DNA of 64,000 nucleotides from Thermodesulfobacteriota bacterium (GTDB taxonomy: Bacteria > Desulfobacterota > Desulfobacteria > Desulfobacterales > SURF-7). The position numbers and the translations under genes were made by a program. A model generated the notes under the pieces. The model was not told the DNA's origin. It did not search any database and was given only the letters and a program-made list of their open reading frames with translations. The stretch lies in contig JBMORA010000063.1 in the NCBI GenBank assembly GCA_049320885.1, positions 1-64,000 on the forward strand. The letters are read 5' to 3'. This document shows, piece after piece, positions 44,066-63,408 of the stretch; positions within the stretch are counted from its first letter, which is position 1; each line of letters opens with the position of its first letter.

Positions 44066-45931
44066 ATGAAAGGCCGGTGTTACGGATGGATATTGTTTCT
44101 TCTTTTGGCCGAAGCACTTCCGGTCATGGCGGCTGACAGGGCCCTGGAGATCAACATGGCGGAAAACGCCAGACGCACGGCTCTGGTGATCGGCAACTCG
44201 GCCTACCCGAACGCGCCGCTGAAAAATCCGGCCAATGACGCCCGAGATATGGCCGCCGCCTTGAAAGAATGCGGCTTTACCGTAACCGTGGCCATCGACT
44301 CCGATTTGCGAAAAATGGAAGAAGTGATCAGCGATTTCGGCCGGAAGCTGCGGGAAGGCGGCGCCGGTCTTTTTTATTATGCGGGTCACGGCATCCAGAT
44401 GGAAGGCGCCAACTACCTCATCCCCGTGGACGCCGTCATCGAAACCCCCGCGGATATCCGTTATAAGGCGGTTGACGCTTCCTGGGTACTGGGGAAAATG
44501 GGCGACGCCGCCAACGGCCTCAACATCGTCATTCTGGATGCCTGCCGAAACAACCCCTTTGCCAGGGGCACCCGGGCTGTCGATCAGGGGCTTGCCAAAA
44601 TGGATGCGCCCACGGGCTCGATTATCGCCTATGCCACCGCTCCCGGATCGGTTGCGGCCGATGGTGAGGGGGAAAACGGTATTTTTACGCGCCACTTGAT
44701 GCATTTCATGCGGCAGCCCCGCTTGAAAGTGGAAGAGGTTTTCAAAAACACCCGTATGGCGGTGATGAAAGAGACGGATAACCGCCAAACGCCCTGGGAG
44801 TCGTCATCTCTAATGGGAAATTTTTATTTCAATCCCGGCGTTGCCGATGTCGCCGCTGCACCGCAACCCTCGGACGACGTTGTCCTACCCCCTGAAGCAA
44901 CGGATATCGGCAATTTCGACAAGATCCTGAAAAAGCGCGAACAGGCCAGGCAGAAATGGTCGGAATGGCAACTGGACATGACGGCCCAATACAAAAAAGC
45001 GGAAGAATATGATGGCAGCAAGCTCCTGACGCCTGCGGAAAAAATCGCTGTCTGGAACCGATTTTTAGCGGCGTATGGCCCGGACAATCCCTATTCCAGG
45101 AAAGATGATACCCTTCGACAGGCGGCCATGGAGCGCAAGGGAATATGGCAGGAAACGGCCGCCACTCCCCGGCCCAAGGAAGACAGCGTCTCCGACGCGC
45201 CGGTCAAGACCGTTCTGACCAATTCCCTGGGGATGAAATTCGTTTACATCCGGCCGGGGGTCTTCCAGATGGGCAGTCCCGGGGGGGAGGCCGGCCGGGG
45301 GAAGGACGAAACCCGCCACCAGGTAACCCTGACCCGGGGGTTTTTTCTGCAGACCACTGAAGTGACCCAGCGTCAATGGAAAAAAGTGATGGATGACAAT
45401 CCGGCGGTTTTTTCAGATTGCGGCGGGGATTGCCCGGTTGAAAACATCTCCTGGGAAGATACGCAGCAATTCATCGACAAATTGAATCAGCGGGACGGCA
45501 GGATATACCGGTTGCCGACGGAGGCCGAATGGGAATTCGCGTTCCGGGCCGGTACCCGCAAGATGTTCTATACGGGTAATTGCCTGTCCGCGGACCAGGC
45601 CAACTACGACGGGAACTTCCCCATGGACGGATGTTCCGGCGGCCCGAATCGCAAATCGATTGTCGTTGTCGGCAGTTTTCCGCCGAACCCCTGGGGCCTG
45701 TACGATATGGCCGGAAATGTATGGGAGTGGTGCCAGGACTGGTATGGAAGCTATCCCGGAGGGCCGGTTTCCGACCCCGCCGGTCCATCCTCCGGCAGTC
45801 AGCGGGTGATGCGGGGAGGTGCATGGAACAGCTACGCCGATAATTGCCGCTCGGCAAACCGCATCGGCTACGGACCCGGGGAAAAATACGGCAACTTCGG
45901 TTTCCGCCTGGCCCTCAACACGGATCGCTGA
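44066..45931 (+). CDS. Caspase (C14) domain plus FGE-sulfatase/CLec domain protein, probably secreted
   Basis: GGAGG RBS, hydrophobic N-terminus, ALVIGN..Y, YYAGHG and ILDACR dyad, QTPW; C-terminal RLPTEAEWE, YDMAGNVWEW, RGGAW, GFR. Confidence 0.92.
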   Translation: MKGRCYGWILFLLLAEALPVMAADRALEINMAENARRTALVIGNSAYPNAPLKNPANDARDMAAALKECGFTVTVAIDSDLRKMEEVISDFGRKLREGGAGLFYYAGHGIQMEGANYLIPVDAVIETPADIRYKAVDASWVLGKMGDAANGLNIVILDACRNNPFARGTRAVDQGLAKMDAPTGSIIAYATAPGSVAADGEGENGIFTRHLMHFMRQPRLKVEEVFKNTRMAVMKETDNRQTPWESSSLMGNFYFNPGVADVAAAPQPSDDVVLPPEATDIGNFDKILKKREQARQKWSEWQLDMTAQYKKAEEYDGSKLLTPAEKIAVWNRFLAAYGPDNPYSRKDDTLRQAAMERKGIWQETAATPRPKEDSVSDAPVKTVLTNSLGMKFVYIRPGVFQMGSPGGEAGRGKDETRHQVTLTRGFFLQTTEVTQRQWKKVMDDNPAVFSDCGGDCPVENISWEDTQQFIDKLNQRDGRIYRLPTEAEWEFAFRAGTRKMFYTGNCLSADQANYDGNFPMDGCSGGPNRKSIVVVGSFPPNPWGLYDMAGNVWEWCQDWYGSYPGGPVSDPAGPSSGSQRVMRGGAWNSYADNCRSANRIGYGPGEKYGNFGFRLALNTDR

Positions 45932-59138: not shown

Positions 59139-59220
59139 TAAAACGACAAACCGGGGGGCCGGAATCACGCTGCGGTTCCCCTGATCATAAAACCCTGTGT
59201 CAAGGAGAAAGGAGTCAGCA

Positions 59221-61005
59221 ATGGAAAAGAGGAAGCTTTACAAAGGCGGCGCCTTCTTGTTCACCCCCATCCCGGCCGGCGACGTTTTCACCCCCGAGGA
59301 GTTCACCAAGGAACAGAAAATGGTCTTCAAGGCGGCCCAGGACTTTGTGAAAAACGAGCTCGCCGGCAACGCCGAGCTCATCGAGGAGAAACAGGAACCC
59401 CAGGTCCGCAAATGGTTCCGCATGATCGGCGAACTCGGCCTCAACGCCATCGATGTGCCGGAGACATACGGCGGTGAGGGCATGGACAAGATCAGCGCCT
59501 GCCTGGTGACCGAAGCCATGGGGGCCGGGCATTCCTTCAGCGTTGCCCATACCTGCCAGACCGGGATCGGCAGCCTGCCCATCCTGCTCTTCGGCACCCA
59601 TGAACAAAAGCAAAAATACATCCCCCGGCTGGCCAGCGGCGAAATCATCGGCGCCTACTGCCTGACCGAATCCGGGGCCGGTTCCGACGCCCTCAACGCC
59701 CAGACCACGGCCCGGCTTTCCGAGGACGGCCGCCATTATCTGCTGAACGGCGAGAAAATCTTCATCACCAACGGGGCCTGGGCCGATGTGCTGACCGTCT
59801 TCGCCAAGGTGGACGGCGACAAGTTCACCGGTTTCATCGTGGAACGGGGATTCCCTGGGTTCTCCACCGGCGCGGAGGAAAAAAAGCTCGGCATCAAAGG
59901 CTCGTCAACGGTTTCCGTGATCCTGAAGGACTGCCGGGTGCCGGTGGAAAACGTGCTCTTCGAGGTGGGCCAGGGGCATAAAATCGCCTTCAACGTGCTC
60001 AACATCGGCCGCTACAAGCTGGGTCCCGCCACGGTGGGCGCCATGAAGGCCTCCCTGGCCCAGGCCGCCAAATACGCCACGGAACGGGAGCAGTTCGGCA
60101 AGAAAATCGCCGAATTCGGCCTGATCCGCGACAAGCTCGCCCAGATGGCCGTCGGCATCTACATCGCCGAAACCGCTTCCTACCGCTTGGCCGCCGCCAT
60201 CCAGGACCAGCTCGACACCCTGCATTCGCAGCAGGAAATTTCCGGGGCCGATATCTCCCGCGCCATCGAGGAATACAGCATGGAATGCGCCCTGGTGAAA
60301 ATCGCCGGCAGCGAATGGCTGGACTATGTCGTGGATGAATATGTCCAGATTTACGGCGGCAACGGCTATATAGCCGAATACCCGGCCGAGCGGGCCTACC
60401 GCGATTCCCGCATCAACCGGATTTTCGAGGGCACCAACGAGATCAACCGCATCGTGGCCGCCGGCACCCTGCTCAAGCGCGCCCTGGCCGGCCGCATCGA
60501 TCTAATGGGCGCCATCAAGGCCCTGCCGGCCGTGGACCCGGGGGCCCAGACCGCGCCCCTGGATGCGGAGAAGCCCCTGGCCCGGCAGCAACAGCTCCTG
60601 ACCGCCTGCAAACAGTTGTTCCTGCGGACCGTCGAGGCGGCCGCCGCCAAACTCATGGCCAACATGGACGGCGAGCAGGAAATCCTCGGCCTGCTGGCCG
60701 AAATGATGCTCCAGGTCTATCTCATGGAAGGCGGGCTCCTGCGGGCCGTGAAAACCGCGGGAAGCACCGGCGGGCAAAAAGCCGAATTTCATGTTGCCGC
60801 GGCCCGCGTTTACCTGGCCCGGACCCTGCCGGAAATGCTCTCCAGGGCCCGGCAGATCGTGTCCTATGTCGGCGACGGCGCGGTGCGCGCCGATCTCCAC
60901 AAACAGATTCAATGGCTGAGCGCCTTCCCCCAGGAGGACATCATCACCCTGAAACGCCAGATCGCCGACCGCGTGGTCAAAAGCAAGAAATATCCCCTCG
61001 GATAA
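59221..61005 (+). CDS. Acyl-CoA dehydrogenase (long FadE type with C-terminal extension)
   Basis: KGGAFL..FTPEEF, YCLTESGAGSDA, GEKIFITN, REQFG, RIFEGTNEINR. Confidence 0.95.
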   Translation: MEKRKLYKGGAFLFTPIPAGDVFTPEEFTKEQKMVFKAAQDFVKNELAGNAELIEEKQEPQVRKWFRMIGELGLNAIDVPETYGGEGMDKISACLVTEAMGAGHSFSVAHTCQTGIGSLPILLFGTHEQKQKYIPRLASGEIIGAYCLTESGAGSDALNAQTTARLSEDGRHYLLNGEKIFITNGAWADVLTVFAKVDGDKFTGFIVERGFPGFSTGAEEKKLGIKGSSTVSVILKDCRVPVENVLFEVGQGHKIAFNVLNIGRYKLGPATVGAMKASLAQAAKYATEREQFGKKIAEFGLIRDKLAQMAVGIYIAETASYRLAAAIQDQLDTLHSQQEISGADISRAIEEYSMECALVKIAGSEWLDYVVDEYVQIYGGNGYIAEYPAERAYRDSRINRIFEGTNEINRIVAAGTLLKRALAGRIDLMGAIKALPAVDPGAQTAPLDAEKPLARQQQLLTACKQLFLRTVEAAAAKLMANMDGEQEILGLLAEMMLQVYLMEGGLLRAVKTAGSTGGQKAEFHVAAARVYLARTLPEMLSRARQIVSYVGDGAVRADLHKQIQWLSAFPQEDIITLKRQIADRVVKSKKYPLG

Positions 61006-61018
61006 TTCCTCGCGCCTC

Positions 61019-61061
61019 CCCGCCGCGCCCGGCCGCCGTCATGGCTACCGGGCGCGACGGG
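61019..61061. terminator. GC-rich hairpin after the acyl-CoA dehydrogenase
   Basis: CCCGCCGCGCCCGG / CCGGGCGCGACGGG, 13 of 14 pairs. Confidence 0.6.
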
Positions 61062-61269
61062 TGCCTTCCTGAAAAATAGAAATGCTCCGCCCGGACATTC
61101 ACATTGCCGCTACCAATCCGAACGGAGTGGTTGATGTTTCGGTCGACTGAATCCAGCCGACACAGGAGTAAAACCTGGACTTGCATGCAGCGCTCCTGCT
61201 CTTTTCTTTTATGCAGAAGATGAAAAACGCCTGCGGGATAACCCCGCCATGGCGTAAACGTATGTTCTC

Positions 61270-61293
61270 TCGCGAAGGCGCCAAGACGCGAAG
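61270..61293. repeat. Short 8-bp-period repeat at the avd breakpoint
   Basis: TCGCGAAG GCGCCAAG ACGCGAAG. Confidence 0.55.
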
Positions 61294-61300
61294 AAAAACA

Positions 61301-61378
61301 GGGGAACTTGTCCAGTTTCGGAACCATCCATACCAGATAATCATACAGTTTCGTGATGGCGCCGACTTCTTTCGGCAT
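61301..61378 (-). pseudogene. avd: Truncated DGR accessory variability determinant (first 26 codons)
   Basis: MPKEVGAITKLYDYLVWMVPKLDKFP matches the Avd/four-helix-bundle N-terminus (K.YD...W..P...KFP). It has a GGAGGGGG RBS and sits directly behind a CLec gene; the frame continues only as unrelated sequence. Confidence 0.75.
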
Positions 61379-61431
61379 GGGCCAATCCCCCTCCGCGGCG
61401 GCAAAGGGTAAAAGAGTAAAAGGGAAAAGGG

Positions 61432-63408
61432 TTACCGTTCCATCCTGACGCAGCGGAACCCCACGAGGATGTTACGGTTCTCCGGGTTGAGCCTGAGGCG
61501 GTTCGCACAGCGCGCAATGTCCTGACGGCTGTCCCAGGAACCCCCGCGCAGCACTTTGCGACCATGCTCATAGTCTGTTTCAGTCCATTCCCACACGTTC
61601 CCGGCCATGTCATAGCAGCCAGATAAGCTTGTGCCATTAGGATAGCGAGTTACGCGTGTAGTCTGTCCGATACCCGATTCAGCAGTGTTGCACTTTTCCG
61701 GATCGAATTCATTCCCCCAGGGATAGGTCCGCCCGTCATTCCCCCTGGCCGCCCGCTCCCATTCGATTTCGGTGCTCAGGCGCTTTCCTTCCCATTTGGC
61801 AAAGGCGTCGGCTTCGTAAAAGCACACGCCCACCACCGGGTGGCCGTCCTTGTTCCATTTTTCATCGTTCCAGTATCGCGGCTCAGTGATATTGTTTTTC
61901 TTCCGCCATTCAAGTCCTTCGGGAGACCAGAAATCGTCCTTTGAATACCCCCCGGCCTGCAGAAACTTGCGGTACCGGTCGTTGGTGACCGGGTATATAT
62001 CGATCTGGAAGGACGTTTCGATGGTTTCTTTTTTCCTGTTTTCGCCATAGAGGAAATCCCCCGCCGGCACCAGGGCCGTTTCTTCATAGTGCCGGACCGG
62101 TTTCACCGTCTGTTCCGCCAGCCCCTCCGGCGACTCGACCATCCCGCTCAGGGTGATCAATTGTGCCACCTCCTCGGGCTTGCCGGAAAATGTGCTTACT
62201 ATTTTCACCAGTTCCCGCACCCGCAGATAGTTTTTCAGTGTTTGGGGGACCTCCTGGAGATCATCTTCGGAAAGGCCCCGGACATCATCGGACTCGAACT
62301 GGGGCGACAGCTTATTGATCCATTCTTTCAATACAAACAGGTTGTTGGGATTATCCTGGATATCCTGATAAAAATCCGGAAACACATATTCAAAAACACA
62401 CATGCTCAATATGGAGGAAAATTCGATGGACATCCCTTTGCTGGCAATGATCCCGGCCAGCAGGTTCAGGTTGTTCAGGAAGCGCTTAATTTGCCGTGGG
62501 TTTTTCTGCAAGGCCGGGGCCAGGAGGGGCATATAGTCCAGAATTTCCTTCTTGTTGCGCAGCTTGAACCGTTCCTGGCCCACCCAATCCTTCAGGTCGT
62601 CGGCAGGTATCGGCCGCAACTTGAAAGCCACCTGCACGATCTTGTCCATGAAACGGGCCGCTTCTTTCCCGCCGTATTTTTCCTCCAGGGCCTTTATGAT
62701 GATTTCATCCGCAGCCCCCAGCACAAAGGCGCAGCATTTCTTGTCCAGGAACAGCTTGACGGTTTCCAGCACCTTGACGATTTTGTCCGGCGGGCAGCGG
62801 TCCAGATCGTCGATGAAGATCACCAGGGCGCCCTTCCGGTCGTCCGGCTCTTCCCAACTCTTCCATTTCGGCCGCCACCGCAGGTAGTCCCATATCAAGG
62901 CGTCGAAAAAATTCTGGAACGTTTCGAAAAAACCGAGTTTTTTTCTGTATTCGAGCTCGGCGAAAAACGCGGTCACATCCAGGCCGGCAAATCCCGTCAG
63001 CTTGCCGACAGCAGCCCGAACCTGATGGGTCTTGACCAGTTCCTCGACCCTAGCCTTGCAGCTGTCCAGGAACGAGTCGCGCTTCATGGTCCGGAAAATC
63101 TCCTCGATCAGGGCCGCCAGGATCGCGTCCTCGTCGGCATGCTTCCAGGCCTGGAACCAGACGGTCTTGGTGGCGCGGCGGTGGACCTCGTCCGCGGCGG
63201 CCCCGGTATCGAGCAGGCGTTTGATTTCCCTCATCAGGGTGGTCTTGCCCGAGCCCCATGAGCCGTATACGCCGATGACAAAGGGCGTCTGATTGTCTTT
63301 GTCGGCGATCAGGTCGGCGATGGTCCGGGCATAGGCATCGAACCCGAACATAATGGTTTCTGTTTCCGGATTATCGCTGAGAATTTCGACGCGTTTGCTA
63401 TCCGTCAT
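61432..63408 (-). CDS. KAP-family P-loop NTPase fused to FGE-sulfatase/CLec domain (DGR target-like)
   Basis: GVYGSWGSGKTT Walker A, F.AW, VIFIDDLDRC Walker B, DKIVQV, NPRQIKRF.N; C-terminal EWERAARG, YPWG, DMAGNVWEW, RGGSW, GFRC. RBS GAAGGAG. Confidence 0.93.
   Translation of the reverse strand: MTDSKRVEILSDNPETETIMFGFDAYARTIADLIADKDNQTPFVIGVYGSWGSGKTTLMREIKRLLDTGAAADEVHRRATKTVWFQAWKHADEDAILAALIEEIFRTMKRDSFLDSCKARVEELVKTHQVRAAVGKLTGFAGLDVTAFFAELEYRKKLGFFETFQNFFDALIWDYLRWRPKWKSWEEPDDRKGALVIFIDDLDRCPPDKIVKVLETVKLFLDKKCCAFVLGAADEIIIKALEEKYGGKEAARFMDKIVQVAFKLRPIPADDLKDWVGQERFKLRNKKEILDYMPLLAPALQKNPRQIKRFLNNLNLLAGIIASKGMSIEFSSILSMCVFEYVFPDFYQDIQDNPNNLFVLKEWINKLSPQFESDDVRGLSEDDLQEVPQTLKNYLRVRELVKIVSTFSGKPEEVAQLITLSGMVESPEGLAEQTVKPVRHYEETALVPAGDFLYGENRKKETIETSFQIDIYPVTNDRYRKFLQAGGYSKDDFWSPEGLEWRKKNNITEPRYWNDEKWNKDGHPVVGVCFYEADAFAKWEGKRLSTEIEWERAARGNDGRTYPWGNEFDPEKCNTAESGIGQTTRVTRYPNGTSLSGCYDMAGNVWEWTETDYEHGRKVLRGGSWDSRQDIARCANRLRLNPENRNILVGFRCVRMER
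61441..61551 (-). other. Putative DGR variable region (VR)
   Basis: RGGSW DSRQDI ARCANR LRLNPENRNIL VGFRC. The variable codons GAC AGC CGT GAC ATT CTC CTC ATC CTC all end in C/T, as expected for mutated AAC/AAT template codons. Confidence 0.65.

Follow-up and report, generated by a model that had tools for sequence, protein, structure and literature searches.

An intact KAP NTPase-CLec gene as the probable survivor of an internally deleted DGR in a Thermodesulfobacteriota bacterium

The stretch of DNA analysed here (the window, 64,000 nucleotides at the start of a contig of a Thermodesulfobacteriota bacterium) carries an intact gene for a 658-aa protein in which a KAP P-loop NTPase is joined to a C-terminal CLec domain of the FGE type (61432–63408, minus strand, as are the variable repeat and all cassette remnants described below). 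This gene is best explained as a former target of a diversity-generating retroelement (DGR), left as a sensor of fixed specificity when the DGR to which it belonged was gutted, and we regard this account as a whole as likely. Its firmest part is the history of the locus as a frozen DGR, which we hold with high confidence; a role of the protein against invaders is put only slightly above even. On this reading the ancestral locus was a cellular DGR with the order target-avd-RT-TR-spacer. One internal deletion took everything from avd codon 27 into the first part of the spacer, with RT and template repeat (TR) in full, and the target gene outlived this deletion with the last variant of its variable repeat (VR) that it had received.

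A domain search of the 658-aa protein placed KAP_NTPase at residues 23–318 (62455–63342; E 1.5e-41, and 143 bits with PF07693 against a cut-off of 20) and FGE-sulfatase (PF03781) at residues 442–655 (61444–62085; E 3.4e-51), so that the fusion of the two domains read from the DNA alone in the original prediction is borne out. Walker A and Walker B are intact in the window protein and are conserved across the KAP-CLec family. A transmembrane insert is found in many KAP NTPases, not all; the NTPase domain here is without one and no transmembrane segment was detected in the 658-aa protein (top 19-residue hydropathy 1.38), in agreement with the cytoplasmic receptor-like NTPase proposed earlier. 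The hallmark of the formylglycine-generating enzyme is a catalytic cysteine pair after an RGG motif, and this pattern is absent from the window protein and occurs in 1 of 120 listed KAP-CLec relatives. The DGR variable protein TvpA of Treponema denticola is a lipoprotein. When an AlphaFold2 model of the 658-aa protein (mean pLDDT 86.6) was used for fold comparison, the CLec domain was found to share its fold with TvpA (PDB 2y3c; Z 24.4, rmsd 2.1, 191 aligned) and also scored with EgtB (Z 30.1), CalU17 (Z 25.6), Mtd (Z 15.9) and TaqVP (Z 13.1). As EgtB and CalU17 outscore TvpA, the CLec fold by itself is no proof of a DGR target. The N-terminal part of the model gave the RADAR ATPase RdrA (Z 15.4, rmsd 6.7, 299 aligned) tied with ORC/Cdc6 (Z 15.4 and 15.2), so that the fold search gives no pointer to defence. 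Foldseek with the whole model returned FGE-fold entries only, among the matches listed, and a metagenome scan with the whole protein gave mostly CLec-domain matches (28–53% identity) with no close ortholog among the matches listed.

The VR comprises residues 621–655 (61444–61548) and is now fixed. It had been claimed that the last 35 or so codons fit an adenine-based template with changes confined to the first two positions of AAY codons, and the guessed template turned out to lie near a real TR, that of an intact DGR in the same order (locus L103), which was the nearest to the window VR among 46 same-length TR-like sequences compared. Relative to the L103 TR, the window VR is changed at 14/31 adenines and 0/39 non-adenines of codon positions 1 and 2 (Fisher p 1.4e-6), as the claim would have it; at position 3, 11/33 non-adenines are changed, which marks the L103 TR as that of a relative and not the cognate one. 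The search for the cognate TR of the window VR came no closer than L103. It should be noted that control FGE domains of the window genome (G000; six of the eight other FGE matches in the genome, the pattern having failed to catch two) are likewise skewed to differences at TR adenines (p 0.001–0.18), because the TR-adenine codons sit in variable loops. These controls differ from the L103 TR at 10–16 of the 39 non-adenines, and the informative part of the VR comparison is therefore the zero non-adenine changes. About 13 codons at the tip of the non-catalytic CLec domain once underwent adenine-directed diversification. A second FGE-domain gene in the window (45239–45913, plus strand), which by eye has a caspase-like N-terminus, is unlike the TR (11/39 non-adenine changes).

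Past the stop codon the pyrimidine repeat described earlier is present at 61403–61431; this tract is conserved after targets of the same DGR lineage and is probably part of the target-recognition signal. The DGR cis signal past the VR consists of an IMH and a hairpin. At the window VR the hairpin folds no better than shuffles (z −0.16), and the pyrimidine tract beside the VR is conserved. Beyond this lie the first 26 codons of avd (61301–61378), which form the left edge of the deletion and which alone matched no Pfam family, yet are identical at 21/26 positions to an intact Avd passing PF22296, so that the avd start read there previously holds up. A palindrome-rich junction filler of ~90 nt (61209–61300) follows, of which no full copy exists elsewhere in the genome and for which a MITE origin is unproven, and then a remnant of the structured post-TR segment (the DGR RNA spacer), namely the first hairpin's 3′ arm with the next three hairpins (61082–61208), which forms the right edge. 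The original prediction was correct in that no TR or RT lies downstream and that an acyl-CoA dehydrogenase gene (59197–61005, plus strand) converges on the target gene, and its proposal of a decayed DGR cassette is upheld by the avd and spacer edges; the persistence of the post-TR segment at ~61082–61208 had been overlooked. No sigma-70 promoter match was found at the locus, and its one terminator-like site equals chance expectation.

A query of the L103 TR with its downstream sequence matches the genome at two sites only, the VR (75%, E 5.5e-15) and 61087–61196 (75%, E 5.2e-12), and the post-TR segment alone was found at full strength in 3 of 21 chosen genomes, two with an intact cassette and the window genome. 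Across eight intact loci the segment folds as four stem-loops, with both-sided changes at 23 of the 43 predicted pairs, and the window retains the last three of these and half of the first. Rfam gave no meaningful match in 60900–61500. The segment resembles the spacer RNA of the Bordetella phage DGR, which binds Avd and RT according to the accessible part of 10.1101/2023.10.23.563531, an element-by-element mapping between the two being presumptive. The avd start and the spacer core lie 1571–1573 nt apart in 6/6 intact loci measured and 197 nt apart in the window, which with the ~90 nt of filler means that ~1.4–1.5 kb was deleted. The spacer remnant at 61082–61208 indicates that the locus is an internally deleted DGR and not a remote target, and both edges, together with the spacing in the intact relatives, show a single internal deletion.

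Intact relatives were sought with DNA in 401 genomes of the order and with Avd in 401 genomes of the phylum, which gave the DGRs of genomes G121 (L103) and G533 (L093). Others came from a scan of a genome collection with the L103 Avd, in which 110 relatives were confirmed, 80 kept and 11 inspected in detail. RT, TR and post-TR segment are present in 6 of these 11 loci (L115, L116, L117, L119, L120 and L121). All these intact relatives share the order target-avd-RT-TR, with an overlap between the TR and the end of the RT gene, so that in this lineage, of the order target-avd-TR-RT assumed earlier the avd behind the target stands and the TR before the RT does not. The core order avd-RT-TR followed by a structured RNA was found in eight intact relatives, and in the window its two remnants, avd start and post-TR segment, still stand in this order. 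The core is exactly architecture B2 (avd-RT-TR) of Wu et al. (2018; PMC5758913), for which NTPase, metallophosphatase and FGE targets are listed in the text available; the intact relatives often have two targets, and of the core only its two ends survive in the window. The direct intact counterpart is L115 (a 658-aa KAP-CLec protein, 51% identical, with avd, RT, TR and spacer), in which the VR, set against its own TR, is changed at 14/30 adenines and at 0/75 of the remaining bases; the corresponding figures for L121 are 20/33 and 1/72. The intact single-target cassette of L115 and the deleted window locus, with proteins of the same length, thus make a clean before-and-after pair. A KAP-CLec gene of a different DGR lineage (G034) differs from its TR at 15/26 adenines and 1/79 other bases, and the one in G533 has diverged from its TR (24/33 and 12/72). 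TR-like sequences are therefore present in related genomes (e.g. L103, L115 and L121), in keeping with what had been expected of a DGR target.

In a protein search 402 matches at E 1e-60 or better were found among 8000 candidates scored, and 120 listed proteins of these (query included) were aligned, all with both domains and at 46–61% identity; one (P0112) comes from a cultured species, named by the source as Desulforapulum autotrophicum HRM2. The excess variation forecast for the predicted codons is seen in this set. With relatedness uncorrected, the 13 columns with AA at TR codon positions 1 and 2 have a mean of 3.45 bits against 1.31 in the remainder of the domain (p 2e-9), and NNY-reachable residues make up 1370/1416 (96.8%) at the 12 AAY columns against 11097/17189 (64.6%) at other high-entropy columns. 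A family of compact, soluble 658-aa receptors with many natural tip variants makes the ligand question of DGR-diversified cytoplasmic CLec sensors directly testable.

The machinery has been lost repeatedly. In the same-genus genome G001 (99% complete) an ortholog of the target (61% identical) stands in tandem with three NACHT/STAND-CLec genes, the four orphaned targets having all reading frames open over 3936 codons in total; no RT match was found in G001, and behind its KAP gene lie 88 avd codons, interrupted by a stop, and a short remnant of the spacer. Compared with the window, G001 therefore retains a longer piece of avd and a shorter piece of the spacer, and as neither deletion contains the other they are independent. 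The junction of L189 runs from avd at about codon 54 to the spacer end, that of L118 from about codon 96 to a weakly similar spacer end and that of L095 from 25 avd codons to a second target, while L096 keeps 38 avd codons and L184 and L188 about 93; as the junctions differ among loci, nothing points to a programmed excision site. A strict pattern of VR end and pyrimidine tract, built from earlier matches and known to miss G001, is matched by 8 of 401 genomes of the order. In only one of these eight was the lineage TR pattern matched or an RT of at least 60% identity found; the seven without a TR match are 98–100% complete but for one at 86%. Orphaned targets are thus the usual state in the lineage, so that searching for DGRs by way of the RT would overlook most DGR-shaped receptors. 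The G001 array (contig C98; L034:10146–19362 and L035:1107–4325) comprises metallophosphoesterase-NACHT twice, KAP and caspase-STAND-TPR genes, each followed by a pyrimidine tract and decayed cassette remains, and an alpha/beta-hydrolase-like gene lies upstream of the caspase-STAND-TPR gene.

The protein is most likely a cytoplasmic sensor of fixed specificity. Its CLec tip would bind a ligand (probably an invader protein, from a phage or otherwise), ligand binding would switch the KAP NTPase to an active, probably oligomeric state, and the active NTPase would restrict the invader itself or via a partner encoded elsewhere. That the window protein acts in defence is suggested by analogy, from the PADLOC models that match its KAP domain (PifA, E 2.9e-30, QatA and PDC-S20, the shared KAP domain alone being covered), from the defence-type effector domains on tandem paralogs (in relatives the tandem neighbours of KAP-CLec are NACHT/STAND-CLec genes with metallophosphoesterase, caspase or HD domains), and from the block of phage by an unrelated KAP NTPase, which needs Walker B and the C-terminal region for this according to the part of PMC13552941 available. 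Like the phage-defence KAP NTPases PifA, QatA and EF_KAP treated there, the window protein has intact Walker motifs and a C-terminal region; unlike EF_KAP, with two transmembrane helices, it has none, and its C-terminal region is a DGR-type CLec receptor. The strongest competing explanation, to which we give appreciable weight of about one chance in three, accepts the same history and makes the protein a non-defence signalling switch (a fixed-ligand sensor or a partner subunit) or a neutral leftover nearing loss. In line with it, no effector domain was found in the 658-aa protein, the gene is solitary between housekeeping-type genes with no partner gene alongside, no defence island was seen in ~12 kb to either side, no full-length match to the target protein was obtained in G002, a genome of the same genus, and inactivated DGRs are common, over half of candidates having been discarded as broken or incomplete in the survey of PMC5758913 as far as its accessible text reports. 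It is countered by the G001 orphans, uninterrupted where the avd remnant beside them has an internal stop, which suggests that selection keeps the targets after loss of the machinery, and by the defence-type effector domains of the paralogous targets; a neutral leftover also sits poorly with a dN/dS of 0.15 between the window and G001 genes, although dS is almost saturated and part of the interval predates the deletion.

The second alternative is that the target still undergoes diversification, whether in trans by a DGR that the assembly lacks or among a subset of cells whose cassette is intact; we consider it very unlikely. The assembly (G000, 5.6 Mb in 68 contigs, 98.24% complete) contains no TR by BLASTN, by an adenine-tolerant scan (best non-self match with 9 non-adenine mismatches in 60) or by the TR pattern with three mismatches, so that the search for a repeat in the same genome differing from the VR only at adenines came out negative. 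The sole RVT_1 match is a 309-aa RT directly upstream of a cas1-like gene (L001; G000:C15:19748–23359), which was rejected as a DGR RT on account of this position and of its 29% identity to the lineage RT, and which is probably part of a CRISPR adaptation module. No intact avd was found either, tblastn with seven intact Avds giving only the 26-codon fragment at a meaningful E-value; three weak bAvd (PF22296) matches in contigs C35 and C23 fell below the cut-off and presumably represent four-helix-bundle proteins. Small four-helix-bundle genes were seen between heptamer repeats (G000:C23:12535–14050, C35:1027–1314 and L034:19470–19680), the remnant of one sitting behind the third target in G001. 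In viral contigs no Avd relative was found with the one query used. With no TR, DGR-type RT or intact avd in a 98% complete genome, mutation in trans as originally suggested is unlikely, and the spacer remnant means that machinery in cis was once present here and then cut out. On the other side, the window VR and pyrimidine tract are well preserved, an assembly of 68 contigs leaves room for coexisting cells with the intact cassette, such coexistence having been described in another organism, and activity in trans and mixed structural variants are on record (PMC10907252, in the part available). Remote targeting also exists in the lineage, a target in G121 (L060:10–156, G121:C11) on a contig other than that of the DGR agreeing with the L103 TR at 72/72 non-adenine sites. 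Among sequencing runs the locus was listed for a single one, which may be that from which this DNA came, and for none of RNA. Its contig across the window locus gave no differing letters and no listed VR variant, which, as contigs drop rare variants, is silent on activity. In the assembly the target can no longer be diversified, and the same presumably holds for the population. The last alternative, that of an ordinary KAP-FGE fusion whose loop varies by nature and which never belonged to a DGR, has in its favour the adenine skew of the non-DGR FGE controls and is refuted by the zero non-adenine changes in the window VR (10–16 in the same controls), by the avd and spacer remnants and by the exact TR-VR pairs of intact family members, and we give it practically no credence.

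The kind of protein, a putative sensor, is already known. DGR-diversified NTPase-CLec proteins are described as putative antigen sensors (clade 5D), with KAP NTPases among the target types, by Dore et al. (2024; PMC10907252), the available text of which also covers degenerate DGR loci (RT or TR lost), activity in trans and one non-diversifying locus, and states that CLec-bearing STAND proteins are experimentally untested; the original description of a little-described system was therefore overstated. Like the clade 5D sensors as presented in that text, the window gene is a target of a cellular DGR and encodes a P-loop NTPase with a single FGE-type CLec VR at its C-terminus; unlike them, it lies in a genome without a DGR-type RT, a TR or a source in trans, and the target has no N-terminal extension or effector. 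FGS/FGE domains are treated as sensors of STAND-type systems in the accessible parts of PMC7159879, 10.1101/2022.07.19.500537 and PMC13581612, and the window protein shares the NTPase and C-terminal FGE/FGS sensor with the bacterial NACHT/STAND-FGS 'antigen-receptor' proteins discussed there, several of which are DGR-linked, but it is a KAP protein of two parts (NTPase and sensor) rather than three. Literature searches, whose coverage left out most subscription journals, found no paper that has KAP-CLec proteins, or the repeated deletion of RT and TR in this lineage, as its subject. What the locus adds is the exact anatomy of a deletion, the frequent orphaning of targets and a receptor family amenable to experiment.

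Beyond the frozen DGR itself, loss of RT and TR could have been a selected lock-in, a cycle of 'diversify, then freeze', although we think this improbable. A mobile DGR would then have entered the lineage, matured effector-less KAP-CLec and NACHT-CLec receptors and been deleted. Were this so, heritable immune receptors of fixed specificity would remain, the 120 or more variants would amount to a library of selected binding sites, and KAP-CLec would be a two-part receptor class with its own output.

Several further loci were noted. In G160 three tandem NTPase-CLec genes (L101:6175–15161, G160:C2) have well preserved VRs (1/39 non-adenine changes each); this genome (99% complete) gave no TR pattern match; it also carries a separate DGR, with a TR that by eye is dissimilar. 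Another decayed DGR is represented by L282 (G056:C2:115717–116625), a DGR-like RT with three TGA stops beside a frameshifted-looking VR. In G094, KAP-CLec and other CLec genes surround a 1103-aa P-loop protein (L105:1594–13179, G094:C23) in a genome without a lineage RT match. In G533 the second target of the intact DGR is trailed by its own short avd fragment (L092 / L093:14420–14620), so that avd starts can travel with duplicated targets too. The DGR of the other lineage in G034 (L036:6810–13758, G034:C47) has the order target-avd-TR-RT-target with a KAP-CLec target; its RT is without ~100 middle residues (matching the query at 6–169 and 269–350), and both VRs still match the TR.
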